Below are positions 490 to 64,000 of a stretch of DNA of 64,000 bases, piece by piece. The stretch lies in assembly GCA_030264375.1 (NCBI GenBank), contig JASCQW010000043.1, positions 83,800,036 to 83,864,035 on the forward strand. The letters are read 5' to 3'. The position numbers and the translations under genes are program-made. A model generated the notes under the pieces. It worked only from the letters and a program-made list of their open reading frames with translations. It did not search any database and was not told the origin of the DNA. Positions within the stretch are counted from its first letter, which is position 1. Each line of letters begins with the position of its first letter. Origin of the DNA: Carcharhinus longimanus. Its lineage: Eukaryota.

Positions 490-855
490 GCACTGTTACT
501 TGTAATTCATTAGAGTTTACTTGTGCCAGTGGTAGATGCATTTCCAAAAACTTTTTATGCAATGGTGCAGATGACTGTGGTGACGGAAGTGATGAAAAGG
601 ACTGCAAGTCGCGTATCTGTGGCCCTCATGAGTTTCAGTGCAATAGTTCTGAATGCATTCCCATGAATTGGCTGTGTGATACTAATGCTGACTGTGCTGA
701 TAAATCTGATGAATCTCCACACCAGTGTGGGTATACACTTACAGTGACCTGTTCTCCTGGTGAGTTTTTATGTAATTCTGGTGAATGCATTCACGGTAAC
801 TGGCACTGTGACGGAGATAAAGACTGCAAAGATGGAAGTGATGAAGACAAATGCT
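490..855 (+). CDS. Unit A exon: LA4-LA6 (three LDL-A repeats)
   Basis: ttttag|GC...TGCT|gtaag; 366 nt; [30 protein letters not shown]...[23 protein letters not shown]. Confidence 0.95.
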
Positions 856-27800: not shown

Positions 27801-30800
27801 TCATTATTTACCACACTTTAATGCAGCCATCAGGTAGGAAATCAAACATCTACTTTTAATGTTATTGGCTTTGCATTTACTCTGTAGGGTAGATGTGCCT
27901 AACTGCTAGCATGTGGATTTCCAATAGTTGGAGGTCAGCAAATTCCATTTTGTTATAGAACAGTAATAGTTCTAACTATAGATATAGTATGAATATCTTT
28001 GCCTTCCACAGCAATCATTTTGTCCACATTTGGATTAGTCGCTGTGGATATTTTGTTTGTGCTCAAGTCCATGATTTCAATGCACAATGACTACTGTGAA
28101 ATTTTGAATGTTTCAAATAGCAAATTTGGGTTTTCATTTGATCTTGGGCCACTGGCCTTGATTTGTTTCCAGTACTGACAAATTTATTTGGTCTCAACAG
28201 GCATAAACTGGTGCAATGAGAAGTTGAAAAACGGAGGCTGTAAATACCTGTGTCTCCCTGGCCCACAGATTAATCAGCTGCCAAAATATACTTGCGTGTG
28301 TCCATCTGGAATCAAGATGAAGAATGAACACTGTGAATTTGGTAAATATTGGTTTTGAGGTTTGTTCAGGGGTTGGGGGGGAGGGGAGGTGAGACTTTGC
28401 TTTAAGTGAGAATGTAACATGTTTAGCGTGTGATTGAAGATTTTGATCTATTTTGTAAAATCATAGACTAGGCAATCACCTTTTGCATGAAGGATAGAAA
28501 AATTACCCAAGGCCTTGAGATTGCATGCAGCAATCTGACTACACACTATCAATCACTAATCTGCATAAAGCCATAGTTGGAATGTCATTATACTTGTGTT
28601 GTGCCTCCTTTGTGCATTAGTTCCAGTAGTGTTTTTTGTGGTATTTGCTTTTGGATGCTGCTGGTAGTTGATCCAATAGCTAAGTTCAAGTGGGGTGATG
28701 AAGTCTGTCTATCTGAATAGTTGGACATATGGGAGGCCTCAAATAGATCTGATATGCAAGTCATATTTAGAGTAAAAATGCATATTAAGCAAATAATAAA
28801 TGCTCTTTTGTGTACTGCTTCCCCTTGTCTACAAGTTTTCCCCAAAGGGATTAACTTTTTTTTGAGGGGATAGTATAAAGAGGAAATGTGAAAAAGGATG
28901 CCCAATAAAGTATTCTGGGAGCACTGTTAAGAAAGGTGAAAATAGATGGACCTGGAATCCCTCAGTTACAGAATTGGAGTGAGTTGTACATTGTGCCAAC
29001 CTGGAAGTGGGTAGAATGCTTTGTATTGGTCAAAGCCAGTATAAGTCAACAAGAGCTCTTTAGACAATAAGATCATGTGACAAATCATTTTGAAGTTCAG
29101 GCTTTATGTAATCCAGCCCAAATTGCTGCAATCTTAACAGCTAACCCACTGGGAGCAATTGTTTAGTTCATCAGTATTTACCCATCCTTGTCATCACAAT
29201 CTGTAGCAGTTTCACCAATTTGCCTGGTACTTAAAGACATCATGACTGGACATGTTCATGACCCTTTTTTTTTGAATGAATTTTTCCAGGGCACACTAAG
29301 GAAATGACTGACTCTTCACTTTAGACTCCGCTGGCTGCCATTCAGCATAATAGCTAAATGGAGGGGTGAGGGTTCTTGCATACTAAATGTTCAACTTGGC
29401 CGTATGTCTTGAATTAGCAGTAGTCAAAGACTGTAGTCGTATTTTCCCTGACAATTAATGCTCTATGTCAAGAATCTGACTTGTCATGATGGACAATGCC
29501 TAGTAAGTGGCAGTGTGATGGAGATGCTGACTGCAAAGATGGATCTGATGAAGCCCCAGATGCCTGTTCTAAATATCTTATGTTGGCAGTTCAACTGCAA
29601 CAGTCAATCACTTTCTTGAGCAAAAAATACTAGTACAGCTTCCGCAACTAGTTTCCTTTCTATACATTGCATTTGACTGGGACTTTCATAAGAGATTAGC
29701 AGATCAAGTTATTAAAGTGCCATCTGCAGTACAATGAAAAATCTGTTGGCTGCACTGAATTTTACCTATTAGACTCCTAACTCTTGGTCAAACAGTTGAA
29801 TTGTTCGCACATTGTAATTTAATGGGTAGAAAGATGGATGCAAACATTAAAATTTATTTTGTTTGTAAGTTACCTCACCTAGATCAGGTGAAAAAAGGTG
29901 GTAATGGGGAATCGATGGGAGCTGAAACTGGACAGCATATAAAATGCTCACTGATTCACTGCCTATTTTTAACTAGTAGCAAATCAACAGCCATGGTGCT
30001 GGCCTAAAGTTTTAATGTTGCATGACCAAAGTTAGTTGTGGTATAAATGGATGGATATGTTGCACTCTAGCACAAGTCTGGGTCTATACATGCTTCTGCA
30101 TACTCAAATGTGATGTCTTTGACTACCTTGGAGCAAATCCTTTTTACTGTAGTTCTTAATCTGTTTGAGAAATGAGATTCTGGAATAGCTGTTTATTTTA
30201 AAACCTTCTATTTCAGACACCAGAACCTGTCATATGAATGAAATCAGCTGTGGCCCTGGATCTCTTCAGTGTATTCCTGCAAATTGGAAATGTGATGGAG
30301 AAAAGGACTGTGCAAGTGGCAGTGATGAAGAGAACTGTGGTAGGTTAATAATGGCAAGATTTAAACATGGTTTGCAAACAGTCAAATAGTCCAGGGAAGG
30401 TGGGAAAGAGAATGCAATGAAGTTGCTGTGAAAATTGCCTAGCCACTACACTCTCTATCTGAACAGGCACCACTGAAGGAGAATTTAGCATGGCCAATGT
30501 CAGTTGATATGGTTTGAATTTTAATTGAAGGTAGGCTTGAAGAACTCAGTTTAATTGTAGCCCAGGCTATTGCTCGGTACCGGCAATGAAAATGCTAATC
30601 TTAGAAGTTACAGTTGGTAAATTTTGATGCTAGTCACTTTTGTCAAATGCTCAAGACCTTTTGCAGGTAAACACGTCAAACTAATCTAATATCTACTGCT
30701 GTCAGATCCTCCTGGAAAAGCAGCACCTGTTGGTTGAAATAATTCATTATCTGAAATAGGAGCAATTTTTTTTACTCGGGCTAAATCCATTTTTGGTTGA

Positions 30801-33173
30801 TGGTGTTCTTCTACCACTGGAGAATCCTCCTGGTCTGGCAGCTTCTGAAGAAACAGTTCCAGTCAGAACTGGTGAAATGTCACAACTGAAACATTCTCTC
30901 TGGAGAGAAGCGCAGACCTGCTGACATTCTGATATTTTGCTTTTGAATTCATGGAGAATTTTTGGATGCATTATGGAATGAGTGATAAACATTAAACTAC
31001 ACTATGAATAAAATATTTTTCAGGCAACCTTACTTGTAGTCCCAGGGAGTTTACCTGCTCCAGTGGCAATTGTGTTTCCAGAGCATTTCTCTGCAATGGG
31101 GAAGATGACTGCAGTGATGGAAGTGATGAAAGGGACTGTGTGCCATCTATTTGTCACCCACATGAGTTCCAGTGCAATAATTCTCAGTGCATTCCCTTGG
31201 ATTGGGTGTGTGACAGCAATGCAGATTGTGCTGATCAGTCTGATGAATCTCCAGACCGCTGTGGACACATCAGTCTTCCTCCTGTGACTTGTGCACCTGG
31301 TGATGTTCCATGTGATTCTGGTGAATGCATTCACAGTAAATGGCACTGTGATGGTGATGTAGACTGTAAAGATGGGAGTGATGAAGTTAATTGTCGTAAG
31401 TAATCTGTTTTTATGCTATGCACCTCTTGTATAAATTTCAGTTGTGATGAGCCCTCTAATATGGTGAAGGAAAATGTAACCCTCTGACGCAGGAGTACTT
31501 GGAATAGATTTACACTAGGGATGTTTCAAATGAATATTCTACATTTTTTAGGATCCTTTGTCATCAGAACAAGTTTAAAAGGCACCCAATACTTCACTGC
31601 TGCTTAAAATTTGTTCCTGATAAATAGGCTTACATTAACACTGCAATGAAGTTACTGTCAAAATCCCCAAGTCGCCACAGTCTGGTGCCTGTTTGGATAC
31701 ACTCCAGGAGAATTTAGCATGACCAATGCACCTAAGCTGCACATCTTTCAGACCTGGGAGGAAACCCACACAGACATGGGAAGAATGTGCAAACTCCAAT
31801 GACCTAAGCCAGGAAGCAAACCCTGGTCCCTGATGCTGAGGCAGCAGTGTTAACCGCTGCCACTATGCTGCCCCCTGTCAGAAGTTCTGTATATGTGTCA
31901 CGATTGAGGGCAATCCAGAACTGCTTGTGTCCACTAAGCTTGTCACATGCTTATTGTTTTTAAATGTGATATTGTCAATGCCAAGTTGAATATTTTGGAA
32001 CAGCAATGCAATTTCAAGTGAAGCTTCAACATTGCAAGTATATTTATAACAAGTTTAATTCAGAGCACTGGAACATTTAAACTTTTGGTCCCCATCTTTG
32101 ATTTCAGCTCCTCGCAAATGTAATCCAGGTTATTTCAAATGTGGTGATGGTGCCTGTATCCCTGGTAATAAAATATGTAATGGAATTTGGGACTGTGCTA
32201 ATGGCAGCGATGAAGCTGTCTGCAAAAATGGTAGGTTTGTAATTTGCCAAAATAACTTCAAATGTTTTTTGGGTCATTTCAGAGTATTTACTTTGTTTGT
32301 TCTCTTCTACAATTAGAATGTACAGGACTTGATGATTTCAGATGTCAAAGTGGGGAATGCATCAATGTGTCTCTAGTGTGTAATCACCATCCAGACTGCA
32401 TGGATAAGAGTGACGAACCCCCTAAAGGATGCTGTAAGTTTGAACTATAGGCATGATTGGCTTCATATTTAATGAATCTGATGCTGCTAACTCATTAAAA
32501 TTTTGTCTTGTGATGTAGACCATGTTCCTTCCCTTTTGAATGCAAAATCTTGCAAGTTCTTTAACTGTCAAATGTGCAGCCACTGATGTAGAAATGTTGC
32601 TGTTAAAGAGCTTTGTATAACTTAGCTGTGATGTGACAATGATCAAAATCTGGGGGATAAGTATCATAAGAACATAAGAAATAGGAGCAGGAGTAGGCCA
32701 TCTGGCCCTTCGAGCCTGCCCCGCCATTCAATAAGATCNNNNNNNNNNNNNNNNNNNNNNNNNNNNNNNNNNNNNNNNNNNNNNNNNNNNNNNNNNNNNN
32801 NNNNNNNNNNNNNNNNNNNNNNNNNNNNNNNNNNNNNNCACACAGTACTCCAGCTGTGGCCTCACCAATGCCCTATACAGCTGCAGCAAGACCTCCCTAC
32901 TTTTATATTCAATCCTCTGGAATAGTGTCATGGGATCTCTGTACCCACAAAACAGATGGCCCTCCCCAAGTTCTAATGGTGTAAAAGATCTAATTTCATT
33001 TTGAAGCTTAAACTGGCACTTCCCACATAAATTTGATTTTTTTTTGTGAATAGTTGGCCCCAAGCAATGATTGCAGCATTCCACTAGTCAGTGTCAACCT
33101 TGTGGCTTGCTTCCACTTTTTTTGTTTTAAATGTCCTCATCCATGCCAGTACATTATCTGCCTGCCACTTCTT

Positions 33174-33206
<33 letters not shown>

Positions 33207-36200
33207 TTCTTTCTCCTCCCTCTCCCTCTTTTTCCCCCCCCCCCCTCCAGTTTATTTGCTAATTTCCTGTGTGGCCCTTGTGCCAAAGTGCCTCAAAATC
33301 CATATTTGCAAACGTCCACTTCTCTAATCTGTTCTGCTAGTTGCATTCTGACCCAGTTAATTGAATCTTTCCCTTTTGACTAATCAAGTGTCTTGTTTCT
33401 ATTTTTAATATATCCTTTAATAGATTTTGGCATTTCCCCAAGTCAGATTATCTTTCTGTATTTTACCCCACCTTTTTATAGTGGGATTACATTTGCTGCC
33501 TTCCAATCTCTAGAAATTATTCTAGAGCACGAATGTAGCCAACTTTTTCGGCATTTTGGAATGTAGATCAAGTCCAGGGGATTTATTGACTTTCAGTCCT
33601 GTTGTCTCCCATGTGATTTTCACATCAATCTTTTTTTGGTCCATTGGCTCTCTAGTATTTGAGGGAGGCTTTTTTTCCTCATGAGGATCGAGAAGCTATG
33701 TGGCCACCTCAATTTGTATGTCAAATCCACAAGTTTTGAGTGTTTATCCTTTTTGAATTTATTCATTGACCACAGACCTAATTGCATTCTTCCCTATTTA
33801 GCCATTTATATCACTTCTGCTAGATAGTTGTGACTTGTTAAAGGTTATTTTAGTTACATGTAAGGCTTAAATTAACATTGCAATGAAGATTTTGTGAAAT
33901 TCCCCTAGACACCAAAGTCCAGTGCCTGTTCAGGTCAATGCACTTAACAAGTACGTCTTTCAGAATGGGCGGGAGATACTAGTACACCCCCACGCTGACA
34001 ATGTGCAAACTCCACATACAGTAACCCAAGCTACAAATTGAACTCAGGTCCCTGGCGCTGTGAAATAGCAATGCTGGCTCCTGTGCTGCCCATATATAAT
34101 GTAAATTAAATGCCATGATGCATCTCTCAAACTCCCAGCTTGCTAATTCTTCTAGGCAGCTTTCAATTTTGACCATTCATCTTAGACTGTTCAATTTCCA
34201 TGGCTCAGAATATCCTTCTGCTCCTGGATTAACTTTGGGCATTTTCTTGAATTCTACTTCAGAGTTTCAGGCATGCAGGATGGCAGAACAATTGTGGTTG
34301 ACATCAGTCTCAATTCTAGCTGTGATAGAATATTATCTGCTCAAGTATTGAGTATTATTCAAATTCTTGGTATTGAATTACAACAATCCTTAACCACATT
34401 GCAAACTCCCATTGTAAATATCTTGCCTTGCATTACAGCTGCACGTTGTGTTATTAATAATGCTTATTGTTTGAATTTGTATCCATTTTTGTATAGTCCT
34501 CCAGTTTGAAGATATTAGCAAATTGATTCAGATACAGTTTGGAAGATGCTGTGGAGTATGATTCTGCTGGTACTGGAGACACTCTAGAAAAGTGGTGGTC
34601 TGACATCTGGATTTTACTGTCTTTGTAGATGTGAACGAGTGTTTAGTGAACAATGGAGGCTGCTCTCACACCTGCACCGATCTTGTTATCGGTTACAAAT
34701 GTGAATGTCCCTCAGGTTTTCAACTGTCCACCACAAAGGCCTGTGTAGGTAAGTAGAATCATTAAAAACAGGCTAATGGAAAATGGTCACCTTGAATGAT
34801 ACAAAATTTTATTTTTTTTCCAGACATTGATGAATGTCAAACTCCTGAAACCTGTAGTCAAATTTGTATCAATTTAGAAGGGAGCTACAAGTGTGAATGT
34901 CACCAAGGATATCACATGGAACCAGCGACTGGCACATGCAAAGCAGTTGGTAAGTAAACTGAAGATTTAGTGAATTGAATGATAAACTTTTTTAAATTTC
35001 TTGCATTTAAAGCTTCCATCCCCATAGCCAATTTTCAAGAATATCATATTTTGTTGAATGTTACCTTTTGATCCTTTTGGAATCAGCCACACTTCAACAA
35101 TATAGCTGTATAGTTCAAACAGTGGGAATAGCATTTCTGGTGTGTAGTTGGAAATTTATTGCAACTATATACAAGTTATTGGCACTTACTACTTCTAAAT
35201 GTCAATGTCTTTGAATTGCATTTTGGCTCTTAAGCTGGTTCTTAAAGTTATTAATATACATAGGAAAAGAGCCTTATTTGATCTTCGCAAATCGCCATGA
35301 CATCCGCAAGCTAGGACTACATCATCGTGAGTACACCCAGGTAGCTGTACAGCTGAGAAATGCTGTAGCACTGGATGCAGATATTGCAGAACAGAGAATC
35401 TTCTGGGCTGACTTGAGCCAGCAGGCAATTTTCAGGTAATGAAGTATTGTGCATAAATCCTAGCTTGATGCTAAAACTTGCATGCTATTTATGTAGAATT
35501 TAAGTTTTAAATTTAAATGAGTAAAACTTCAGCTTAACTTCTAATCCAGGACACTAGACATTTTGTGACAACTTATTTGCTTTTTGTTTGGCACTGCGAA
35601 TTGAATCTAATACCACTAACTGTTTAATTTTTGTATATTGAATTAAGGCTGTTAATTTTCTTTTGGAGAAGTGAACTGTTTTAAAGTGGATGTGCGAGCT
35701 AACCTGACTGTTCACCCTGTTTTAGCATGTCTCTGAATAAGTGGGAAGACAGAACTGACCATTCCATAGTGGTCAAAGATGTAGAAATCCCTGCAGGAAT
35801 TGCTGTCGATTGGGTTTACAAGCATCTCTACTGGACTGATCGTGGTACTAAAACTATATCCATTGCAACATTTGATGGAGCCAAAAGGTCTATTTTGTTT
35901 GACACAGACTTAAAGGAGCCAGGTGCCATTGAAGTTGATCCACTGTCTGGGTACAGTAGTTCTAACTTCTGTAATTTTAGTAGTTTTTTTGTTTAAGTTC
36001 TGAAACTTTAATTTGGGGTCTGAGTTTATCCCAACAAACTGAGTACAAATTGCCCTTCAGCCATCATGCATGCTGAAAATCAAGTGATTGTAGAATTGAA
36101 AATGAACACGTGGAAATAGGAAGTACATGCTGTAATTAGAGGGAATGTTGACTTCAGTAGAAGGCTGTATACACTGTCTCAAATGATGATCATGCTAAAA

Positions 36201-38340
36201 TGATTCAATAGCCATGGATCTAATTGAATATAGGTTAATGATTATCTCGCTGCATGTGATTTTCAAGCTCAACTGATTTTTCTAACACAAGTGTCAATTT
36301 GAGGTATTGCTTTGCAAAACTTAGATGGCCAGCTATTTTCCTAAATATATGCAACAATAATGGTTTAATTTATACTGTGCAGTCCATTCATTTGACTTCC
36401 CTTTGTTTTTTAATTAGGTTTGTTTACTGGTCAGACTGTGGTGAACCAGCAAAGATAGAAAAATCAGGAATGAATGGTGTGAATCGACAAATCCTTGTTG
36501 CCAATGAGATTCAATGGCCAAGTGGCATTGCTCTCGGTTAGTTAATGACACTTTAATTTGTTGAAACCTGCTTTTTGCCTTCTGAAATCTGACCATGCTT
36601 TCTTTGCCTCCAGATCTGGTGAAAAGCCATCTCTATTGGGTTGACTCTAAGTTGCACACGTTATCCAGCGTAGATCTAAATGGGCGGGATAGAAGAACAG
36701 TGCTGCAGTCACAAGAATTCCTTACTCGTCCACTTGCTGTCTCAATATTTCAGGTGAGATGGAAGTGTTGAAATTAGGGTTTTTATAGCCAGACGCACTG
36801 TACTGTTTTGATATCACATTTCAGAATCCCTATTGTGTTGAATCATATGCCCAGAAAAGTGCTCCTGCCAAATATACCAGTGTTGCATGTATTCTGATCT
36901 AAAAATAAGAGCAGTTTCAAACACTGCTCTTCCAGAACATGAAAAATTACTGAGACAGTCCCTTTTCCTGAATGTACACAAGGCTGCCATTGCTTAACAC
37001 CCTGATTCAGAATGTCAAACTTTTTGGAAGATTTTACTGGCATGAATACAGTTATTGCCACCTGTAGTTCCTAACTTTCTCTCAATATTCTGACTTGGAT
37101 GCATTTATTAGCAAGTGTATGCACCTTGGCCATTCTGTTGGGGTTAGATAGTTGGAGGCTGACCATTTGCATTCAATTACTTTTGAAGATCTGAATGAAT
37201 AATTTTGATCCAAATTTGCAAAGGCTGCATCTATTGCTCTTTTTTAAATTGGCACAACGTGGAGCACAAACTAAAGACTTTTTCTTTCCGTTCCAGGATA
37301 GTGCCTTCTGGATTGATGAGGAGAATGAAGCCATTCATGAAGCCAACAAGTTCTCTGGTCAACATGTGCTAACTTTGGTCTCTAATCTGAATGGACCACG
37401 AGATTTAATTATTTATCACAAGTTAATTCAGCTATCAGGCAAGCTTGTACTGTTTTTACAAACAAAAAGCAACATTAATGTTGTACATCAGCTGAAGAGC
37501 AGTGAGGTTTCTACAGATTGGGTAGTTTTTTTAAGTTTCATGCTGCAGGCTTATATTGCCAAAAATCTTAGCCAGTCTCACCAATACTAGAAGCAAATAA
37601 AAAAAATATGCTAGAAAAGCTCTGGCAGCTTCTGTGGAGAGTTAAGTCTTGGCTTGAGAGTCTCCCTCTCCCTCTCCCTCTCTCTCTCTCAAGCCAACAC
37701 CAGGTTAAAATCCAACAGGGTTTATTTAGAATTGAGCTTTCGGAGACTCTGAACCTGGTGTTGAGACTTCTTACTGTGCCCACCTCAGTCCAGTGCTGAT
37801 ATCGCCACACTCTCTCTCCAGCTAAGAGCTGGAGAAATATGATGGATTTTATACTTTAAAAGGATGGAGCAAAATAGGTTGGGGATAAATCTTGAGCTCA
37901 AGATGTCATGGACACAAAGTATTAGTGTACAGAAGGTACTGATAGTGGCATTAAAGGCATGTTAATGGCAAAATAGCCCCATTAATTTATGGGGCAGGAG
38001 GAATTGACATCAGTATTTGCCTCTTTGACTTTGTTTTAAGGTACAAATTTGAAGAGTTGGTGTAACATCATTGAGTTACTATGTAACTAAATGAAAAGCA
38101 ATTTTTGTTAAAATGGCACACAAAGTAACATCATGATCTGGGACCTGTGATTCAATTATAACAGCATTGAAATTTGATTTTGAGCTTTTGATGTGCAATA
38201 TCTTTGGGGGGGGGGGAGAGCGGGGGGCAATTCTTCATGCNNNNNNNNNNNNNNNNNNNNNNNNNNNNNNNNNNNNNNNNNNNNNNNNNNNNNNNNNNNN
38301 NNNNNNNNNNNNNNNNNNNNNNNNNNNNNNNNNNNNNNNN

Positions 38341-38415
<75 letters not shown>

Positions 38416-41400
38416 GTCGTCATGCTTCAAATTCTAAATATTTTTAAAATGGTTTTTCTTTTTCAGGAAGGAGCTGGTGCAGTGTGAATGGAAAGAATGG
38501 AGGCTGTGAATACATGTGTGTGCCTGCACCTCAAATCAACAGTTATTCAGAGAAATCTGCCTGTCTGTGTCCCCCTGGAATGATGCTTGTGGATGGACAG
38601 TATTGTATGGCAGGTACATAGTCAGCAATTTTTTTGCATAACTTCCCTCCATCTTTTTCTCAGGGAAAGAAACCAAGTGGGATATTGACTTGCAGCCTTA
38701 AGGATGTCTTGTAGGGGTGATAATATGGAAAATGTTTATTTCTGAAGGTTAATCTATACTCTTCTGCATAAAATCTGGGTGTAATACCTGTGCAAAGTAA
38801 TGGTCTCATTAGGGAATTCATAGCTATACTCTGAAAAAACACAACCTTTTTTAATGTGTGGGTAGTCTGACATGTCCTAATCAAGTACAAGATGGAGCAA
38901 GCTAGTATTTAGTATTCCCAGAATTTCCACTTTTTTTGTGCATACTTTATCACATCCCTTTCTCCCTCTTGTCTTTAGGTAAATTTTACATTTATCACTT
39001 CTAGTAAAGCAACATGTTAAATTAATTGTGCAATTGACCTGTTCAAAAATTGTCATTGTTTAAGGTGGACAAGATGATAGCATAGTATGGCTTTTACTGA
39101 ATTAAGTGTCACTTGTTCCTATTCGTTAGTTAACGTGACCTGTAGGGAATCGGACTTTGTGTGCCACAACGGACAATGTATACCTAGAAGATGGCTGTGT
39201 GATGGCCAAGCAGACTGTAAAGATGGATCTGATGAAAGTCAAGAAATCTGTTGTAAGTATCTAGTTGATTTACTCCTGTGATGGAAATATTTCCATGATT
39301 TCATTGCTTCTGGCTCTTTATTCACCTGCACTTAAAATTATGGGGCAATACTTAAAATCAACCAGTGGAATTTTTACATATTCCAGCAAAGTAATATCAG
39401 TAGGTGACACTACAGAAATTTCAAACGAGTAGCTGAAAAGTGAGAAATTCAACACTTATTACTTAATTCAGTAAGTAAATTAAAATGACTCGTGTGCCCT
39501 GGTTCAATTTTCGTAGCAGAAACAAATTCGGTTTGGTAGTGGAAATACACTAGTAATCATTTGAAAAATAGCTTGCAGCTATGTAACCAGTCTGTGTACT
39601 TCTAAACTCTCATAATCTGGCACTTGGATTGTTTCAGATGTGAAAACCTGTCTCCTCCATGAAATCAGCTGTGGCCCTGGATCTTCCCAATGTATTCCCA
39701 TCTCTTGGAAGTGTGATGGTGAAAAGGACTGTGATAACGGTGGTGATGAGGAGAATTGTGGTAATGTGGCCTCTACCAATGGGAAATGCTTGTTAGACTA
39801 AATTTGGCAAAACTTATTTTAGAAATAAGAAAAAAAATCACAATGGATGGCTTGTGGCAGCTAACACCATACTTTTCCAATGCAATGAACGGTTCAGCTT
39901 TTTGTTACAGTAGCTAATTGACAAATGTAGATGAGGATTTTTGTAACAGGTGCTAAGCAGGGCAAATAGGCAAACAATTTGGAGATGAACAGTTTTTGGG
40001 GAATTAAGATCAACTCCTGGGTTATAAGCCTCCAAGGTGCTGTTTGGAACTGGCATCAAGAGCAGTGGTTTTTAATCTATTCCTTAGCTAAAATTTCCCA
40101 TTCATCCAGAATTTGATGAACTGTCAGCATCAATGTGATTGGAGTCTTTAGCAGTGGTGGAGGAATGGAACTACAGTCTGAATTTTCAGGATGGGAGTGT
40201 TTCAACCCCATCTGGAAAGTTGGCAGGAAAATGCTCCTCATGCCTGTTGCAACTTTACACTTCTGGCAGCAAGCAGGACTTTTATGTCTGCATTTGGCTG
40301 ACAACACTCAAACCCATCCAGGCATGGTACTGCAGTGTCATGCCTGAGAATTTGCATCCCACAAACTGCAGTGATAAGTAGCAGGGTATCCAGGAAGAGT
40401 AGAGGATGATTGCAAGAGGGTGAATGGAGGCCCAGATTGGTAAGAAAGTGGCCCCAGTCAAAGGAGCCTTCTGATTGAGGTGCTACTGGCCTTCCCTCTA
40501 AAGGGGACACAAGTTAAAGGTGAGGGGGAAGGTTTAAGGGAGATGTGTGAAGTTTTTCACGCAGAATGATAGGTGCCTGGAATGTGCAGCTAGAGGTGGT
40601 GGAAGCAGGCACATTAGCAACATTGAGGCATCTGGATGGGTACGTGAATAGGGGGAGATTGTAAGGAAGGTGTTTTTAGTTGATCAGTGCAGGCTTGGAG
40701 GGTTGAAGAGCCTGTTCCTGTGATGTACTTCATCTAAGATGGAGGGTATAAACTTTTGTTTCCCAAACTGGGTGCCATCAACAATAGAAATACCAAAGAC
40801 TGAGAGTTGGATTGTCTCACTGGAGTTGGTCTTTGCCTGGTACTTGTATGGCATGAATGTTGCTTGCCACTGATCAGCCAAGCCTGAATATGTCCAGGTC
40901 TTGGCATATAGGCCTGAACAGCTTCAGCATCTGAAGGGTCATGGGTGGTGCTAAATGCCGCCTCCTGACCTTTTTAATATGGTAGGGAACTCATTGAAGC
41001 ACTGAAGATGGTTGAGCGTAGGACACTACTCCTGAGGCGCTCCTGCAGTGATGTTCCGGGTCAGAAATTAACCAGCCGCAATCTTTTTGTGCTAGCTTTG
41101 TCTCCAAGTGATTTCCCACGAACTCCAGTTTTCCTAGGATGTCTTGATGTCAAGAGCAGTCACTCTAATATCTCCTCTGGAATTCAGCCCTTGTCCATGG
41201 TTGAACTAGGGTTAGATTAAGGCCTGGAGCTGAGTAGCAAACCAGAGTGCAGGTCAAATGCTACATGACAGCACACCCAACAACCCTATCTGTTGCTTTC
41301 TTGGTAGAGTAGACTGGGGTAGTAATTGCCAAGTTGGATTTCTCCTTTTGTTCAGAGGACATACCTGGGTAACTTTCCAAACTGTTGGGTAGATGCCAGT

Positions 41401-44400
41401 GTTGTGGCTGTACTGGAACAGCTTGGCTAAAAGGATGAGGCTAGTTCTGGAGCACAAGTCCTCAGTACTACTAATGGAATGCTGTTAGGGCCCCATAACC
41501 TTTTTGGTATATGGTACTTTTAACTCTTTCAGTGGAATGAAATGAATGAACTGAACTGGCCTCTTGTGATGCTGAGAACCTCTGGAGGAGGCCAACGTAG
41601 ATCATGCATTCTGCACTCCTGGCTGAAGATTATTACAAATGCTTCAGCCTTTTGCACTGCACAAGATTCCTTCATTTTGAAGATGGGATATTTGTGGTGT
41701 TGTCTCATCCAATACATTATTGTCCATCACATTCACAACAGAATGTGGCAGGACTTGATTTGTTGGTTCTTGGATCACTTTGGCTCTATCCAGTGCTGCT
41801 TAGTTTGTACAGGTGTTGTAGCTTCACCAGGTTGACCTGTCACCTGAGGTGTGCTTGAAGCTGCTTGTGCGTTCTTAGTTGAATTTGGTGCTGGATTGTT
41901 AATGCCTACATGCCAAGACCTGGACACATTCCAGCTTGGGCTGATCAGTGGCAAGCAACATTCATGCCACATACAAGTACCAAGCAAATATTGAATGCTA
42001 AAATGAAAATATAAATACTTGGTCAGGTAGTATGTGTTGTGAAGGAAGTGGTTAAGGTTTCAGGTCTGTGACACTTAACCAGAATATAACTTGTGTAAAT
42101 GAATATTTACAGCAGAGGCAGGCAAGAGCACACCATACATCCAAGGCAACTAACTGAATCAAGGACATAAATTAATTTGCTTTCATTAAATTAGTTCATG
42201 AAAATAATTACACTTTAACAAAGTAACACTGGTCCTTGGATTTAAAGCTGAGAAGAGTATTAGAAATTCCCTAACTAAATTTTCCTTTCTGGAAAATCTC
42301 ACACGTCACCTCATTTTGAAGATGAGGAAACCCAAAAATTTTGGGCCATGTGTCTAAGCACCTTAAATTTCAGCTGAATGGTGACCCAGCCTGAATTTGT
42401 AAGGCCTGTCTATCTTAATTACTACTTTGCAGTTCGATGGACAAATATCAGAGCATAAATCCTGCATAAGATTGAAAGTCATGGCATTGAGGGTACTGGC
42501 TGTTAACAGATGGGTTGAGCTGTAGGAAATCAAGTAGGAATATTAGCAGGATACAAATGCTGTCCCATAGTCAGGTCTCAACTGTTCACTCAGCTTGTAT
42601 GTGGCAGGATGAAGCACCTTTCTTCTTATTTCTGGTTAAGACCAAGATTAGCTTAACTGGGCAAAACTGACGCCAGGATTATGATGTGTGTAAATGTGAA
42701 CAAATTCACTTTGGACCACAACACAAAGTAAGCTAGAAGTCATGGACATCCAAAGATGCTTGGCAATCCAATGTATAGACCAATGTGCTGAGAATCAAAG
42801 CTTGTTGGAATGCTTTGTATAGCAGAAGCATTTCATCCAGGCTTAGACCATATCTGGAGCAATTTTGGGTGCTGCACTTCAGGAAGGATGTTTTGGTGTT
42901 GGAGAGTGCTGTTTTCTTGTATCTAAACTTTAGTTTAAAGAACTAATTGTATCCATTGGAATTTAGGAGGTTGGGTGATTGAGCTTTCAATGAGAACTGG
43001 CAATAGATAAAGTGCTAGCTGTGAACCTTTTTAAAATTTCAGTTATGGGCTAAGGCCTTAGCCAGCATTTATTGTCCATCCCTAGTTGCTCTTGAAGACT
43101 GGAACATATTGATCTGGCTCTAATACATAGGTTTTCAGGAAACAGTTGATGACAAGAAATTACTGTCAGTAAGTCTGAGCTCCACAATCCCCTAATACAT
43201 TAGTTTCTACACTACAGAACCGCACTGGTTCAAATAGATAAATGGTGATAATATAGGCATTTCTATATTACTTATCCCATTCTTCAGATGGTGCTGGGAA
43301 TGTGCCAACTTGAGTCTGGTCTTTAAGACATGTAAAAGGGTTTCTGCACAAATTTCCTGTAATAAATTCAGTCCTGAAGATACTTTTCAAACCATGTCAG
43401 CTGGAGATTGCATTTGTGTAAAACAAGAAATTGACCAAATTTGAGTGACAACTGATTTAATGCTCCATGTGCAAAATATGATCAATATTTGAATGGTATC
43501 AAATATTTGATCTTGAGTCATTTTGAATTGATCTAATTTTATAATTCAACTAAGTGCAAGTATAGGCTACTGTTTTAAGCAGCCTTGAGTGGCAATATTA
43601 ATACTTTTGTTCCATTCCCTGTTCAATCATATTGACTGTTACTCCAGATCAGATCAGTTTCTTGAGCAGACTTTATCCTTTTTTTTTCAGGGACCTTTAC
43701 TTGTGGCCCAGCAGAATTTGCCTGCTCCAATGGCAGATGCATTTCAATAGTATTTATCTGCAATAATGAAGATGACTGTGGTGACGGAAGTGATGAAAAA
43801 GGCTGTGCACCAACTGCTTGTAGTGCACATGAGTTTCAGTGTAATAGTTCTGAATGCATCCCCTTGAGTTGGGTGTGTGACACACATGCTGATTGTGCAG
43901 ACCAATCTGATGAATTTGCAGACCGCTGTGGGTACATCCATTCTCTGACATGTTCTCCAAATGCAATTCGGTGCGGCTCAGGGGAATGCATCCATAGACG
44001 CTGGTACTGTGATGGAGATGCTGACTGCAGAGATGGAAGTGATGAAATCAACTGCCGTAAGTATTCAAGACTTTCTGCTTTGGATATTTTAATAGTTAGT
44101 GCTAGGTGGAAAAGTGTGCAGATGTTGGTCCAAGGACCATAATGAGGCCATTTGGTCTGTTCTGCCAACTGGTTAATTCAGATGCATGTCTTGCACCTTT
44201 TCGGCCACCCTTTAAATCCATACTTAGTGGCCAAATTCAAAACTCTTACTCAAATTTTAATTTTGTGCCAGAATCCACAGCCCTCAAGGATTCCATTGTC
44301 ACTGTTCTGTGTACAGTGAACATTCATTAGCCATTAACAGCAACTACAGAGGCCTTGTTGCATGACTAAAATGTCAATGACCACAAATGGTCACATGGAA

Positions 44401-47400
44401 ACTAGGTTAAATCTGAAAGGTATTGCACAGACCTTGTTGCATGATGTGAATTAAGGACCACATGATCACAGGTTGAAGAGAAAATTAAACATTAATTCAT
44501 TTCTCTCACTGAAGTTCTTAATCTCTTCCATTCTGATTTGTTCTCTTTGGGGAGATCACTCTTTAGATAACATTTCAGTTAATCTTAAGTTCTTTCAAAC
44601 TTGCTCACTTCTACACAACTCACTATACCTCCACCTGCAATTTGGGATCTACCCTCTTAGAGTATTTGTCAACAATTGAATAAAGGTGTTATCCTTGGAA
44701 CATGTTAGAATACATCCTCTAAGCAATTCTGCTTTTTTATTTTTTTGTGGTGATCTTGCTTTCTAGAAGTCCATGTTATCAAATCTGGAAAACCTCTTGA
44801 TCCACTTCATGCTGTGACTTTTGCTCAGCTTGTATTCTTGGTGCTCCAGGATTAATTATAGCCTATGAATAATATGGGGATTGCTCTAGCAATTTTCTGC
44901 TTAATCCAATAAATGAATTTTTTTAAATTCCAGAAGAGAACTTTAGGCTGATTTTTGGGATGAGAATAAAGCAGCTGTTTTCAAATATTAACCTTTTGGT
45001 TTTAAAACTGGATGAATCACCTAAAATGTGACCTGCTATACTATTCTAACCTTCAGCCCATCACACATGTAGACCAGATCACTTCAGATGTGGTGATGGT
45101 ACCTGTATCCATAATGACAAGAAATGTAATGGACTGAATGATTGCCTTGATGCCAGTGATGAATCTGGCTGTATAAATGGTAAGTGCATGGTGTCATTTA
45201 GAATGAATGATTTTTTTTGACTGACTGAAGTTCTCCATTCTAAATGTATTTTTTCTTTCTGCAACAGAGTGCAGAGGTGCCACTGAGTTTAAGTGTGGCA
45301 GTGGTGAATGCATTGATATAACAAAAGTCTGTGACCAGCATCAAGACTGTAGAGATTGGAGTGATGAGCCAGCCAAAAAATGTAGTAAGTAGTGAATTAG
45401 TTGCATTGCAGATATAGAGCTTTTTAACTGTTTACTGATTTGAACTTCCTGATCCAAAATCTGTTCAATGCTTGGCTATAGTTAGCTTTTTATAGCGGTT
45501 AGCATTCTAATCCGATTATGGTCAGGATACTCCAGCCATTCACCCCAGTGGGATTCCTTGGTTTTGCTGCAGTGAACAGATTTGGCTGAGCATCAATTCT
45601 TCTTCACTTGCAGCAATGGCAAGGTGTGAACAGGTGGAAAATTCCAGCCATTGCATGTGATTCTGGCAAGAACCTGGTTTAGTCTGTCATTCAGTGCTGA
45701 TTTTCATTATGCTTGTAGGGCATTGACTTCAATTACACTTGCTTTATTTTATATTCAAAATATTTGTAAAGTTAAATATTTTGCTTCCAGCTATGAAATA
45801 GTTTTAACTAAAGTTATTTGATTTTTATAAGCTGTTACAATCCCTTTGGGATCTATAAAGCAAAACATTTTACTGAATGATCTAAGATTGTCACTTGTAC
45901 AAAATCAGTGCAATGCAGAGGTAATACAGTATACACTCTGCCTGTGTAGTCTGTTTTTGCCACAGTTCCAAGTAGAATCTCAATCCCTTTCAAGGATTTA
46001 ATCAATATTTTTTTGTGTAGGCAGCAGTATTTACGTGGTTCTCTGTGCACCTTTTCCCATGGATGTACTTTTTCTGGTGTTTGTAGCATCTCCTTGTATC
46101 TGTTTTCTGTTTATGCCTTCAACCAATAACCTGTTGGTACAGCTTTCAGTAAAGGATCACCAGGTCACTTAAGGATTTGATCCTGTATTTGGGCATTGAA
46201 ATGTTTAGAATCTAATTTTTATGGCAAATTTTGAGGTCAAAGGTCATCACAATGCTTTCTACCCAAAGCAGGAATTGAGCAACTAGACCTTGTGATTAAG
46301 TATTTCTGGTTAGTTTGTAGAACTTTCTTTGACATTAAATATCTGATCGTGCACTGACTTAGGCATCTCCAGAATGCAAGTATATAGAGCTGATAAGACC
46401 AACTTTAAAATATAGGGTATTGTGTTGAAAGCATGTCAGAATGAGTGTCAAACTTGTGACAAAGTTATGTAGCTTACTAGCAAAGCAGTTGTATACTTGA
46501 GCTAAATTTTGGAAGGGTGGGGGAGTTCTAAAGTGATTTCATCCTTTTGCTTCCAGATGTGAATGAATGCTTGGACAACAATGGTGGCTGTTCTCACATC
46601 TGTAAAGATCTGACTGTTGGCTATAAATGTGATTGTCCCACTGGTTTTGAGTTGATTGGTAAAACTTGTGGTGGTAAGTTTACTTCACTATTCTACAAAA
46701 GAATAATGACTTTGATGACACTCCAGAGGATATTGGGTTTTTTTTTGCAGATATTGATGAATGTAAAATTCCTGGGACCTGCAGTCAAACTTGTATTAAT
46801 TTAGAAGGAAGCTACATGTGCAAATGCCACGTTGGATATCAAATGGACCCAGCTAATGGGGTTTGCAAGGCTGTAGGCAAGTATATCTTCAGTCGAACAT
46901 CCTAAGAGAGACTGGGTGATAGACTTATGTCCAGTCACTTATTCAGGAGCACCCTAGTGTTTTTGCTCAAGATCACATGTCTGTTTCAGTGACCAACTTA
47001 CTAACTAATTGGGATGAAGGGAAGATTCCCATGGAATTGGGGAAAATTTCCACTAGTGCAGAACTGCTCTTCTGAACTTGAATCATAAGACTATTTTTAT
47101 AGTAATGATCTACTTGTTTTCAATTAAATGTTAAACTAGTTTGTTACTCAGCTCCCATATATTGAGCATTAAATAGCTTGCACATGAAATGACCAACTGA
47201 TCCATCAAGCTTGCCCTACATATGAATGGAGAATTATAACTAAACCACCAACACCCTGGTGCCCCATTCTTAACTGAAATAAACAATCCAGATACTATAG
47301 TGTCAAGTTCCTAGACATTTCTAGGAATCCAACATTTGTGTTGTAGCTTGGTCAGAGGTACTGAGGCATGTTCAATCTGTTACTCCATTCTTCTAGCTCG

Positions 47401-50400
47401 CCTCCAAACTTTTCCATGGTCACTTTCTCCTTGAGGGAATGAGAACTGGGTCTAGTGGTCATGTTCATTCTGCATAGTGCCATTGAGTTACACTGGTTCT
47501 TAACTATAGTTTCTTGCATTTGTCAAGGATCCAGAAACATTACCTTTTCTGTAACTTTCACATGGAATATTGCCAGTATCCTTTCAACACATGACAATTT
47601 TAATCTGAACGCAGTTTGCCATTAGCCCACTCCCTCGATATACTACCAAAGTTTCCAAAAGCATTATCTACCAGATTTCCCACATTTCCTTGCCCCTAAG
47701 ACTTGAGTTCTGCTAAGGGAATATTAGAGTATCTCTTTCTGTCCAATCAAATCCTGCACCCTTTTTGGATAACTTGGCATCGTCAGGATGAATCTGACTG
47801 CAGTGTTTTGTAGCCAGTGAGGGAAAGTTAATATTTCTAGTGGACCTCATCATAGATCTGAAACGTGGTTTTTCACCACAGATGCTGCCTGACCTGAGAA
47901 TTTCTAGTTTTTTTTTTTATTTCCAGCATCTGCAGTATTTTTGTGATTCATGTGACCTGCCCGCCCTTCCCCACCCATGCAAAATGTTAAGGGCATTTCC
48001 TCTAACTGCTTTTAGCCTTCACCAACAAACTGGTTATTGTAGACTTAACACAGTTCATGTCCTCACGCTATTGCTTTCTCTGGCATTACTTTTACACTGA
48101 AACCGTGCTGACCTTGTGTAGACAATGCATGTAAAAAGGGATGGAGACAAGCTAATCTATATAAAAAAAAAAAAAAAAATTTGTTCCAGTTTGATTGCAA
48201 TATTCTGGGAGAAGCAAGACACCTTTTGTCAATTTAGGAGATGATTCTTGGGATAGATGTGGGGTGATTTTTTTTCTCTTGGATGAATTTCAAATTGGCG
48301 GTCACTGCTTTTTAAGTCTCCCATGTAAATTGGACTGTTTTCTTTTCTTGAGGGTAGTGAGTCTCTGGAACTCCCTCCAAAGGCAGATGAAGCAGTCTTA
48401 TGGTAGAAACAGATTATTGATAAGTGGTTAGCATCAAAGTAGCCACGAATGATGAAGCAGACTTGCGGGGCCAAATGGTCTGCTCATATCAGGTGAGCTC
48501 TAGGAGGCCAGTTGGATCTTTTTTCCACCCAATTTTCAATGGCATTTAGAATTTGTCTCCCTTTGTAAAATGTTTGCAGAACACAGGTCCACAATCTATT
48601 GCAGATTACTTTAGTGCTTCCTAGCGTCTTAATAGTTTGTCTGGCTCAGCTAGTACTAGGCTGACTATTGCCACTGTTTCCTAGCTTGGATTTTAAAACA
48701 CCAGTGCTGTGCTCAACGCAACTTTACAAAGGTTGATAGCATAATCCTTGGGCTATATCAAACCATCTAAATTGTTCAATGAAACAAGGTAGATATGGTA
48801 GTCAGAGAAGTGACCTTGAATTCAGAAGTCTCCTTTTTTTTACTAGAGTAATTAAATATAATTGAAGTGAAAGATTTTATTTCCTTACAATGCAAGTAAT
48901 ACCACTAAGCTGAACTTGTTTCAACAAGATTGCTTTTGCAAGTGTAGAGCATGGGTAAATACAGTTGCTTCAGACAATCTATTTTTCCTTCTGAGAATAA
49001 TAGGAATGAATATGGCTTGGGCAATCTGCACTCATCCTCTTGCAAGGTTTATGGCAAACTCTAGCTTTGTTCACCTTTATCTTCTAATGGTGACGACTGA
49101 GACAAACTAATAGAATGTGTCCCTTCAACACCTTTTATGTAAATGCCTTGGTCTCAAGGTAAATGGCAGTTGGTTGAGTAAATTTTGAGGGACATTTTCA
49201 TTAAGTTTCTCTTTTTTTAATAGGAGAGGAGCCATACCTGATCTTCACTAATCGCCATGATATCAGAAAATTGGGATTACACCACAAAGTGTACAGTCAG
49301 GTAGTTGCAGAATTGAGAAATGCTGTGGCACTGGATACTGATGTGGCAGAGCAGATAATCTTCTGGGCTGACTTGGGACAGCGGGCAATTTTCAGGTAAT
49401 ATCATGTTGCACCTCCATAGCTGACCTTGTCCAAAACAGCACTTGCTAGCTTCAGTAACCAATTTGGTCACTTTCTGAAGTGCTTCCATCTTTGAACATT
49501 TTGTGGCTGAATAGTTTTTTGTGATGGCTTTGATTTTATTTCATAATCATTGCATATACTCAGCAGATCTGTGACATCAATAATCATTCATGCAATTACC
49601 TTGTCAAATTAATTTGAATCTCTTCAAATCATGATTGACTAGTTTTCTGGATCACTAAGTAATGACTTGATGTTGATGTGCTAAACTTTTGTAATTAGCC
49701 TGCCTTTTTGTGACTCCACTCCAAGTAGATTTGCTGGTGTTTCAGATGTATGTCCAGTGTCTAGTAATCCTGCAAGTCACATGGTCACTTGAGAGCAACC
49801 AGTAAATTGGCTATAATCATATACTACCTGTATTGTGCATTTTGAGGTACACAACTCTTGCAAGATTTTAATGGTTGGAATTTGTTTGCTTTAACTTTTT
49901 TTTTCTGCAGTATGCTGATGGATGGCAGCACTGGCATTTCCAGGATTGTTAACAATGTACGCATTCATGTGGGAATTGCTGTTGACTGGATCTACAACAA
50001 TATTTACTGGACTGATATGGGTGCTAGAACTATATCTGTTGCAAGCTTTAATGGAATCAGAAGGAAAACTCTCTTTGACAGCAACTTGAGGGAGCCAGCT
50101 TCAGTAGCAGTTGATCCACTATTGGGGTATGAACTTTGCCTTGAATGTACCATTGGGTATTGATGCTTGATTCACTTTCACTGGCATTAAGTATTTTGTG
50201 ACTAAGGTGTTTGGATGATCAAGTAATCAACCAGATCTAGTAACTACAGATGAGAGCAATGATTTATCACTACAGCATGACAATCACATGGGCCATTTTT
50301 GCCCGCCCTTGTCTTTTAGATTGGAGTTGTCTAACAGCAATCTCATTTTTCGCTCTTAAAAATATTTGACCAGTTCCAGTTTGCCTCAACAGCCACTTTT

Positions 50401-53400
50401 TATTGTCCTGACTCCCTGAATGAATTTGGTTCTACCCTGCTGCCCCCTCTCAACCCTTGGTCTTCCAGAATCACTAACCCAAAGCAACCACCCAACTTCT
50501 AAACATTTGCATTTCCCTTGTTTAAATTCAATTTTTTTTAAAGATTTAGCCTTCGACTAAGTCAATGTATACAATTTTTATGCATTTTCCTAATCATTCC
50601 TATATCTAGCCCAAACCTGGGCACAATAATACTGACCCTAACAGAACCATAGGGTGCTTGTTCACCATCTTGTATATTGAGGCCATTTTTAATGGATGCT
50701 AAATTCACCCTACACAAGGCAATAGATTAAGGCTAACATTTCATGGTTCACCAGAAGGGCTGCTTGCATATGCAAGATTAGGAGCAGTTTAATTACTAAT
50801 TTCATAGGTTACACATGTTGAGTACTGATTCCTACCATTTGCCTTTTGTAGCAAAACTCTTTAAAATCACATCTGCCAGACAGTGAAAGTCAAATTTCTG
50901 TTTTGGCTGCAAACTTAGCTAGTTTTGAAGCTTTTTTCCTTGAAGCCTTTGGTATATTGCTGAACACTGTGCTATGCACTGATGCAATTTGACAGCATTG
51001 GCTGAAATTGGGCTATTCAGGGTAAAGGGATCTTCTGGTCCTGCAAGCAGCACACCCTGCCACAGGTTTCCCAGTGGCAGTGCATTCAACAAGAAACAGG
51101 ACCAGAAGATGCTTTTACTGGCCAGTGGTTGGTTATCTCTACGTTGTGGCATGTGGAAAAGCCCACCATTCTTTTCAAAAATGCTGACAGCTTGTAGCGC
51201 AAATTATTTTGCTGAAAAATGAGTTTTTAATTTGGTTTGCATGAGTTACTGAAGTGCCATGTTTGTTTGGAGAGCAGTAATTGCATACTTTACAAATAAA
51301 AAGGCATTGGAGTTTTCAATCCTACTTGTGTCCTTGTCCCTAAAAAGAACCAGTTTCTTTTGCAAGTCTCTCAATCCTGCAAACCAGTGCAGATAGTAGT
51401 AACTTGCAATGGTGGTAATCATCCTGGGGTCAATCTGATTTTTAGAAACATCTAAGTTTTTGTTTTAAGATGCAAGAGTAATTTATGTCTAGGTTATATG
51501 TATAGAATCACTTTACAAAACAAACTACACTTGTACCCAATATTATAACTTAGTATTACAAATTTATCATTGTTAGATTTGCAAGGGAAAACAACTCAAA
51601 TGTCCTTGAAATTGAGAGCTGGAATTTTTAGAAGCAGAAATTCAATTAAATATTCCCCAGTTCTTGCTTACTACTGCCACACTCCTCACTAGCCCCCTGC
51701 TGCCAATGGATCAGCTTCCTTGGATCAAATTTGGCATGCTTGAAATTTGTCCTGGTTTTCTATCTATCACTGGGCAAACTCTAGTTGTGGGTTCATGTTG
51801 CATTGGTGTTGACTTGGTTGTATCGCCCACTGCTGTTTATAAAAATCCATTTGGTTCACTAATCTTTTTAGAGATATATTTGCCATTTTCCTCTGGCCTG
51901 GTTCCTGTTACTCCACATCCACTAACATAGTTGAATCCTGACTGCTTGAGGATGGGCAACAAATGTTGGCGTTGTCATTGACTCTGTCCCGTGAATAATG
52001 GCCCACTACACCTGAAGTTAGATATGCTAGGCAAAATCTTCAAATTTGGAAGTGCAGTTCAATTTTCAATCTTGTAGTACTCAGCTGCCCCTAGGGTGGG
52101 GTAGTGGCAGTAGTTAGCACTGCTACCTTACAGCACCAGGCACCCAGGTTTGATTCCTGGCTTGGTCATCCATGTGGAGTTTGTACATCCACCATTTCTG
52201 CATGGATTTCCTGCAGGTGCTCGGGTTCCCTCCACCATCCAAAAGACACGTTGGTTGGATGCATTGACCCGAACAGGCATTGGAGTGTGGTGACTAGGGG
52301 AATTTCACTAATTTCATTGCAATGTTAATGTGAGCCTTTAATATATTAAACTTTTTCAGATGGTAGGAATCTAAAATTGGATGTGCTACCATTTTTAACA
52401 GCAATGTAATAACTAGCCTTCTGGGGAAAAGGCCATAACAAACAGCCTGGATGTCTAGACAGAAAAGCAGTGCTTTTGTTACTGAAGCTTCAGGGACAGT
52501 TCAGATTGAATTCTTTTTGTTGTTTTTATTTAAAGGTATATTTATTGGTCAGACTGGGGTGAACCTGCAGTGATTGAAAAAGCAGGAATGAATGGTGTTG
52601 GTCGCAAGCTCCTAGTTACCAGAGATATTGAATGGCCAAATGCCATTGCACTTGGTGAGTAGAGCTGTATAAAAATAGACTGTTTTTGGTCTTTGACAAG
52701 CATGGCTCATTTGGTCCAATTATCCCATAGATCTTGTGAAAAATCGTCTTTATTGGGTTGACTCTAAGCTGCACACACTGTCAAGTGTGGATGTGACTGG
52801 ACGGAATAGAAGAACCGTGCTTTCCTCACATGAATACCTTGCTCATCCTTTTGGCATATCAATATTTGAGGTAAAGTATCATTATAAAAAGTGTAGTGAA
52901 TTGTTAAATGGTTTTTGATCAAATGAAATAATCTTGGAAGACATTTGGATTTTAAGAAGCTCCAGAGCTTGTATTGGTTACATCTTGTTATCTGTCCATG
53001 TCCATATGGATGGTCAAATAAGGTGGTTTATGCAGCATGAGGGTGTCATCAGGTGTACAATCTAACCCCTGTTCAGCACTTTTGACTACTTCATAGAATC
53101 CTGAACAGTACAGAAGAGGGCCAATTGAGCCTGCACTAATAATCCCATCCAGGCTCAATCCCCATAACCCACATTGCCCTTCTAATCACCCCAACACCTA
53201 AGGGCAATTTAGCATGGCCAATCCACCTAACCGGCACACCTTTTGGAATTGCCTTTTACTGTCATTCATTGTTTATTGCACCAAATTCGTGTATGTTAAC
53301 TGTAGCATGGAGCACTGTAATACTGTGGGGTAAACAGTTATAGAAAAGCAAAATGTTGTGCTGCAAGTGCACTGCTGGAAATAGCAATCTGGCAGAATAT

Positions 53401-63247: not shown

Positions 63248-64000
63248 GTAAGTGATTTGTCAATAATATGACCATTTATTCATCCTTTTGAGTGAAGGAC
63301 AATATAAATCAACTTTGGTTGCTACTGGCACTTTCCAATTCAGTCAAATGCCCACAGGTGCAGTAAAGTTAATTTGACTACAGCAATGTACTTGTTGTGA
63401 AGTTGTTTCACAACCTAATTCCCAAATGGGCATTGCAGATGTAGCAAGATTTTCTCCATGTTGCTGTAGTAATCTGAGGAATGGAGGCTGCCAGCATTTT
63501 TGCAGCTACTTTCACTCCAACTTTAAAAGTCAAAGAACTAAGAACAATTGGGACTCTGGGAACTCTGGATAAGTTTAGGAAAGTGGTTCCTGGGGCTAAA
63601 AGTTTTTTTCCCTTTTTATACCTGCTGTCTGTAATTTTACAGCAAAGGAGCCATTGAACTGCTGATTTTTGTAATTTGGGAATCCAGCTAAGTCTCTATT
63701 TAAACTTGCTATATGGTACTAAGTTGTCTGTCTATCTGGCAAGTGTGCAGCCTTTAGGACCCAAAGAGATTGATCAAATCTTAGTAATACACCTCGTCAA
63801 CTTCGGCTGAGTCAGAATCGGCTGCTCTGTATGACTGAATCAGGACAGAGAAAATCACGAAGCTTCCAACCTGATACCTGCTCCAATATGAGGGAATGAA
63901 GGTTTATGTACCTAAAATGCAGAACTGAGCAAATTGATCATGGAAATGCAATACAAATGTGTAGTTGTCTACAGTTGCTTTTTTGTCCATATTTACTTTG

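Follow-up and report, generated by a model that had tools for sequence, protein, structure and literature searches.

The four spacers that separate the repeated receptor units in this stretch of Carcharhinus longimanus DNA are very probably phase-1 introns of one gene, VLDLRc3. Splicing is predicted to join its five outer units, all of VLDLR type, in a single membrane receptor whose likely role is yolk-protein uptake in the ovary. The feature is real and is already known: VLDLRc3, VLDLRc2 and VLDLRc1 (c3, c2 and c1) were named by Ohishi et al. in 2023, and the five-unit architecture is described in the same paper (PMC10015161). The additions made here are the exact junctions, a most likely misplaced contig carrying the 5′ end, and the lineage-limited loss of one LA2 exon. 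The window, that is the whole 64,000 nucleotides analysed (G000:C43:83800036-83864035), contains the units as follows.

490 to 11960, + strand: unit A, from LA4-6 through EGF-C; the signal-peptide and LA3 exons belonging to it are at G000:C166:3629313-3630944
13174 to 28341, + strand: unit B, LA2 to EGF-C, 13 exons
30217 to 38613, + strand: unit C, LA3 to EGF-C, 12 exons
39130 to 55356, + strand: unit D, LA2 to EGF-C, 13 exons
57688 to 64000, + strand: start of unit E, which extends beyond the window; its EGF-C ends at window-equivalent position 74167

The EGF-C exon of unit E is followed by a Ser/Thr exon and two membrane/tail exons, with the stop at window-equivalent position 76636; this is the only membrane/tail exon set in the gene. 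In the spliced model the reading frame crosses all four junctions and shows no stop in the 2,782 codons before an N run in unit E; beyond that run it stays open until another N run, in the last exon. Since the latter interrupts the exon, the frame into the tail motif FENPVF is predicted. The tail (window-equivalent 76525-76636) ends three residues after this motif and is without the C-terminal exon of VLDLR. Both multi-unit genes of the locus carry FENPxF instead of FDNPVY (window-equivalent 76525-76636 and 143818-143910). Units A to E have 6, 7, 6, 7 and 7 LA repeats (33 in total). The LA4-6 exon of unit E is broken by a 100-N gap (window 63046-63145) with a short duplicated overlap on its flanks, an assembly artefact.

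A genome search located the missing 5′ end on scaffold C166, as a signal-peptide exon, a 1,442-nt phase-1 intron and an LA3 exon; signal and LA1-3 exons were not found in the 200 kb upstream on the scaffold of the window. The C166 piece carrying this 5′ end is most likely a misplaced contig, because the ends of the segment G000:C166:3628626-3631366 overlap both flanks of the N run that precedes the window (about 55 nt each, 96-98% identity, the left overlap being repeat-like). The single signal-peptide exon can be spliced to unit A. It joins LA3 directly, as in the models of three other sharks, and the five-unit gene is without any LA1.

For the intron model, every GT/GC-AG pair near each exon was scored against three full-length homologs, giving 64 introns from the LA4-6 exon of unit A to the last coding exon. 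The best-scoring pairs define the junction introns and their neighbours:

11961 to 13173, + strand: A-B junction intron, 1,213 nt, GT-AG, phase 1, linker CTRINTATC
28342 to 30216, + strand: B-C junction intron, 1,875 nt, phase 1, predicted splice from EGF-C of unit B to LA3 of unit C, linker CEFDTRTC
29455 to 29568, + strand: dead LA2 exon of unit C, acceptor AG changed to AA, donor GT changed to CT, deletions of 5 and 4 nt
38467 to 38613, + strand: EGF-C exon of unit C, VLDLR exon 15 equivalent, phase-1 donor, PF14670 match under the curated cut-off
38614 to 39129, + strand: C-D junction intron, 516 nt, GT-AG, phase 1, linker CMAVNVTC
39130 to 39252, + strand: LA2 exon of unit D, VLDLR exon 3 equivalent, PF00057, E 4e-16
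55357 to 57687, + strand: D-E junction intron, 2,331 nt, GT-AG, phase 1, linker CKAVKTTC

The homolog-guided search thereby recovered the coordinates of the preliminary description: its four spacer lengths, with the distance from the EGF-C donor of unit B (28342) to the LA2 pseudo-exon of unit C (29455) as the 1,113 nt given for the second, its four linkers, and its GT...AG bounds with a dead acceptor at the pseudo-exon, whose damage exceeds what had been listed. All four junctions are phase 1. The 516-nt intron is unremarkable among the 64, which range from 73 to 4,166 nt with a median of 688 nt. The three live LA2 acceptors are weak, ranking 5th, 6th and 8th lowest of the 64. In the C-D linker (window 39130-39138), six residues and the N-V-T glycosylation sequon are kept in all five orthologs printed for it; the B-C linkers of other sharks also have an N-x-T.

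GC donors are the best reading for five of the 64 introns (window 5944, 6145, 37439 and 46877, and window-equivalent 66706). They mostly follow EGF-A or EGF-B exons; three more occur in the three-unit gene, and none among the 14 introns scored in the one-unit gene.

DNA reads cover the C-D junction. A short-read contig of run X1, which may be the source sample, matches window 38474-39800 with no differences and no gaps; it begins just past window 38241-38414, where an N gap leading into a long stretch of poly-C, likely a sequencing artefact, lies 50 nt before the EGF-C exon of unit C. In a related organism, B, the 516-nt intron region lies within one DNA contig, and none of the 40 substitutions listed, of 55, falls at the GT or AG. 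The contigs of organism B switch strand over about 47 nt at window 28433-28481, possibly a micro-inversion in the B-C intron. All five read-set runs compared behave as DNA contigs, continuing through introns, and therefore carry no information on expression or splicing.

Each spacer was searched alone (E<1e-3) with 50 queries from shark and other vertebrate receptors, comprising 15 signal peptides, 13 signal peptides with LA1 and 22 tails; six of the 13 single-unit tail queries started within the membrane segment. None of the 22 tail queries and none of the 15 signal-peptide queries matched any of the four junction introns at this threshold, and none of the 13 signal+LA1 queries matched the A-B, C-D or D-E introns. 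In the B-C intron 11 of these 13 matched, the best match being the LA2 pseudo-exon. At the true ends of the five-, three- and one-unit genes, used as positive controls, 10 to 22 of the 22 tail queries and seven to nine of the 15 signal queries matched. The search for initial and terminal VLDLR exons that had been called for thus returned no such exon, in line with the earlier reading that the spacers hold no transmembrane, Ser/Thr-rich, NPxY, signal-peptide or LA1 exon.

It had further been argued that the spacers are too short to hide separate genes. For the 516-nt spacer this is decisive: in the Carcharhinus longimanus genome the tail exons alone span 2.5-3.0 kb and the distance from start codon to LA2 is 3.2-5.1 kb, and the true between-gene distances from EGF-C to LA2 at the locus are 30.9 and 85.7 kb. 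The C-D intron contains no AATAAA or ATTAAA, and its longest stop-free frame is 33 aa. For the longer spacers size does not settle the matter, and the claim rests on the exon search.

The surroundings of the window show how the gene ends are arranged. Within 464 kb there are three genes on the same strand, with five, three and one units in that order, each with its own membrane/tail exons, and only these three membrane/tail exon sets were found. Five full-length five-unit proteins of 3,423-3,489 aa (P0121, P0122, P0123, P0241 and P0244) align to the model at 74-90% identity; the model is 90% identical to the Mustelus asterias model (P0121, XP_078069987.1) and 80% identical to catshark VLDLRc3 (P0123, BDQ29913.1). 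The exon-free spacers, the single membrane/tail set after unit E and the full-length five-unit orthologs together argue for one gene, as the preliminary description had proposed.

The units keep their identity by position. Same-position identities are 92-93% with Mustelus asterias, 83-86% with catshark P0123 and 76-80% with whale shark, against 62-70% between units within the gene. Trees were built from 49 sequences (one Chiloscyllium plagiosum unit was left out; bony VLDLR and LRP8 were included, LRP1/2 and Lrp13 were absent). In these trees the units group with shark VLDLR and the positional clades have FastTree support of 0.999-1.0; sevengill or sawshark units fall in those of A, B, D and E. 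Judged by these clades and identities, the five-unit layout was probably in place before the main shark lineages diverged. An identity as LRP1 or LRP2, suggested by the automatic names of some orthologs, was rejected, the identity to these being only 33-41% as against 76-78% for the c3 records.

The assignment to VLDLRc3 follows from the five VLDLR ectodomain repeats, the tandem arrangement with c2 and c1, the unit-by-unit orthology, and one signal peptide and one membrane segment with a tail motif, in a last exon that holds an N run. As in other chondrichthyan VLDLRc3 proteins, including the whale shark record (P0122, XP_048450538.1), there are five ectodomain units, the signal peptide runs directly into LA3, and a single membrane helix precedes a short FENPxF tail; the gene stands in tandem with three-unit and one-unit genes and is 80-90% identical to the two carcharhiniform records. 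It differs from them in that unit C is without LA2 and the Ser/Thr exon is shorter. The exon 3-15 order and phases of VLDLR/LR8 (VLDLRc1, the vertebrate vitellogenin receptor) recur in every unit, and the units are 65-70% identical to Carcharhinus longimanus c1. However, VLDLR/LR8 has one unit, eight LA repeats including LA1, an FDNPVY motif and, with a 19th exon, a longer tail, whereas the units here have six or seven LA repeats and no LA1, and the tail carries FENPVF. The three-unit neighbour, VLDLRc2, shares the phase-1 junction introns and has an FENPAF tail; it differs in that its unit 1 retains LA1 and LA2 and its unit 2 opens at LA3 with no trace of LA2. Its junction introns are:

window-equivalent 117063 to 117305: first VLDLRc2 junction intron, 243 nt, EGF-C to LA3
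window-equivalent 133539 to 133865: second VLDLRc2 junction intron, 327 nt

Among more distant receptors, teleost Lrp13 is a yolk receptor with extra LA repeats, given as 7-13+1 (PMC9935665), and the whitefly vitellogenin receptor is described with 12 LA repeats in two patches and an NPXF motif, such tails being described for insect yolk receptors (PMC4861306). LRP1 and megalin are bulk-uptake receptors with several LA clusters. Lrp13, the insect vitellogenin receptors and LRP1/megalin all differ from the present gene in not being built of five regular VLDLR units.

As to the origin of the units, the duplication breakpoints had been placed in the introns equivalent to VLDLR introns 2 and 15. 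In c1 both introns are phase 1 and the live junctions run from the exon-15 equivalent to the exon-3 equivalent, so that the phases and the exon numbering fit. The positions themselves are plausible as the simplest account only. The matching phase is expected, because 14 of the 18 VLDLR introns are phase 1 and two random introns share phase 61% of the time. Neither comparison of spacer with spacer nor of spacers with c1 introns 2 and 15 gave a match (blastn, E<0.01), so the breakpoints cannot be placed from intron sequence. The unit may alternatively have begun at intron 1 and later lost LA1, because the locus shows three sites at which front LA exons have disappeared: unit A (LA1 and LA2), unit 2 of c2 (LA2) and unit C (LA2). 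An ancient duplication would have created a chimeric EGF-C-to-LA intron, later rounds would have copied it, and front LA exons would have decayed in some units. The order of unit duplication is not fixed by the trees, in which FastTree support between units is 0.15-0.90; the clade of all c2 and c3 units has SH-aLRT support of 100 with 26 of the 49 sequences, against 0.45 in FastTree with all 49.

A somewhat unlikely history that would nevertheless lead to the same single gene starts from tandem duplication of the whole gene instead of a single exchange between introns 2 and 15; splicing would then have read through from copy to copy, and the tail exons, promoter, signal exon and LA1 would have disappeared. 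Whole-gene duplicates do adjoin the five-unit gene, and the three losses of front LA exons are of the kind this history calls for. However, it requires more steps, and the spacers hold no tail, signal or LA1 remnant although the LA2 remnant of the B-C intron is readily visible; age erases evidence either way. No remnant of LA1 or LA2 (E<1e-3) was found in the introns around LA3 of unit A or in the 243-nt junction of c2.

With its dead LA2 exon, unit C gives a minor example of a module being lost. The same dead acceptor is present in organism B, at a contig end. The exon is degenerate in the Mustelus asterias model, where its first cysteine is missing, and intact in the catshark, whale shark, two bamboo-shark genera and sevengill models. 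On this comparison of models the loss of LA2 from unit C is recent and lineage-limited. In the holocephalan c3 protein, as read by eye from the supplement of the 2023 paper, LA3-start and LA2-start units alternate (PMC10015161), which suggests that the LA2 losses were independent.

Phase 1 is common to all junctions and to the exit towards the membrane exons, and the LA2 acceptors are weak, so that a variable number of units is conceivable. The junctions might then act as a tuning dial, through which oocytes could set the unit number of a receptor anywhere from one to five, include or omit LA2, or release soluble truncated forms; the losses of LA1 and LA2 would mark units shifted to other yolk ligands, with LA2 of unit C lost stepwise within carcharhiniform sharks. 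This extension of the one-gene reading is doubtful. More generally, junction breaks in database models, weak acceptors and the imperfect c3 record (P0123 is without the signal peptide, LA8 of unit A and one junction cysteine, at the A-B junction) are compatible with minor isoforms, skipped or truncated, but not with separate genes for membrane receptors.

It is very improbable that the units are separate genes or transcripts encoding soluble single-unit proteins, each ending by read-through into a spacer and restarting at an unrecognised promoter. Eleven database models are partial and several are split at unit junctions (A, B-D and E in Hemiscyllium; unit C alone in Chiloscyllium punctatum; unit E alone in Carcharodon), and reading on beyond each EGF-C donor does reach a stop within 2-30 codons. 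Yet there is no signal exon ahead of units B to E, the split models start without the signal peptide of the family, AATAAA occurs in the spacers at chance level and not at all in the 516-nt intron, and donors and acceptors are retained in frame across sharks. Still less probable is that the five-unit array reflects an assembly artefact or pseudogene decay, as one dead exon, several N gaps and 5′ exons on another scaffold might indicate, given units that differ by 30-38%, the same unit order in other sharks, 2,782 codons without a stop and concordant short-read contigs.

As one gene, VLDLRc3 would, going by its orthologs, be transcribed into one mRNA of about 67 exons, spliced across the four junctions, and yield a protein of about 3,400 aa. 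This would comprise 33 LA repeats, 15 EGF modules and five YWTD propellers. Behind each LA cluster would come EGF-A, EGF-B, a YWTD propeller and EGF-C, and behind the last EGF-C a short Ser/Thr stretch, a single membrane helix and a short tail with FENPVF. Receptors of the LDLR family capture ligands by their LA clusters, release them at low pH and are taken up through clathrin. By analogy with the literature and the family, the LA clusters may bind ligand multivalently, the propellers would release it in acid, and uptake would be through clathrin. The first three repeats of the single-unit receptor reportedly bind vitellogenin (Li et al. 2003). Expression of catshark VLDLRc2 and VLDLRc3 is described as ovary-only, which makes the ovary the probable site here as well, and the repeats are proposed there to bind several vitellogenins at once, binding itself being left to future work (PMC10015161). 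In the literature searched, nothing on VLDLRc2, VLDLRc3 or elasmobranch VLDLR in the ovary was found beyond this paper and one preprint.

The junction introns are the place for a direct test of the single transcript. The three published c2/c3 primer pairs, mapped with one or two mismatches, either lie inside one unit or span the distance between the last unit and the gene end, and none crosses a junction; the published c1 reverse primer gave no mapping (at least five mismatches). The primers listed in the 2023 paper thus do not span the junction introns (PMC10015161). The results also show why annotation pipelines break up or misname VLDLRc3. Knowledge of the gene family is unchanged by them; they provide exon-level confirmation, in one more shark, of the five-unit receptor proposed for the building of very yolk-rich eggs.
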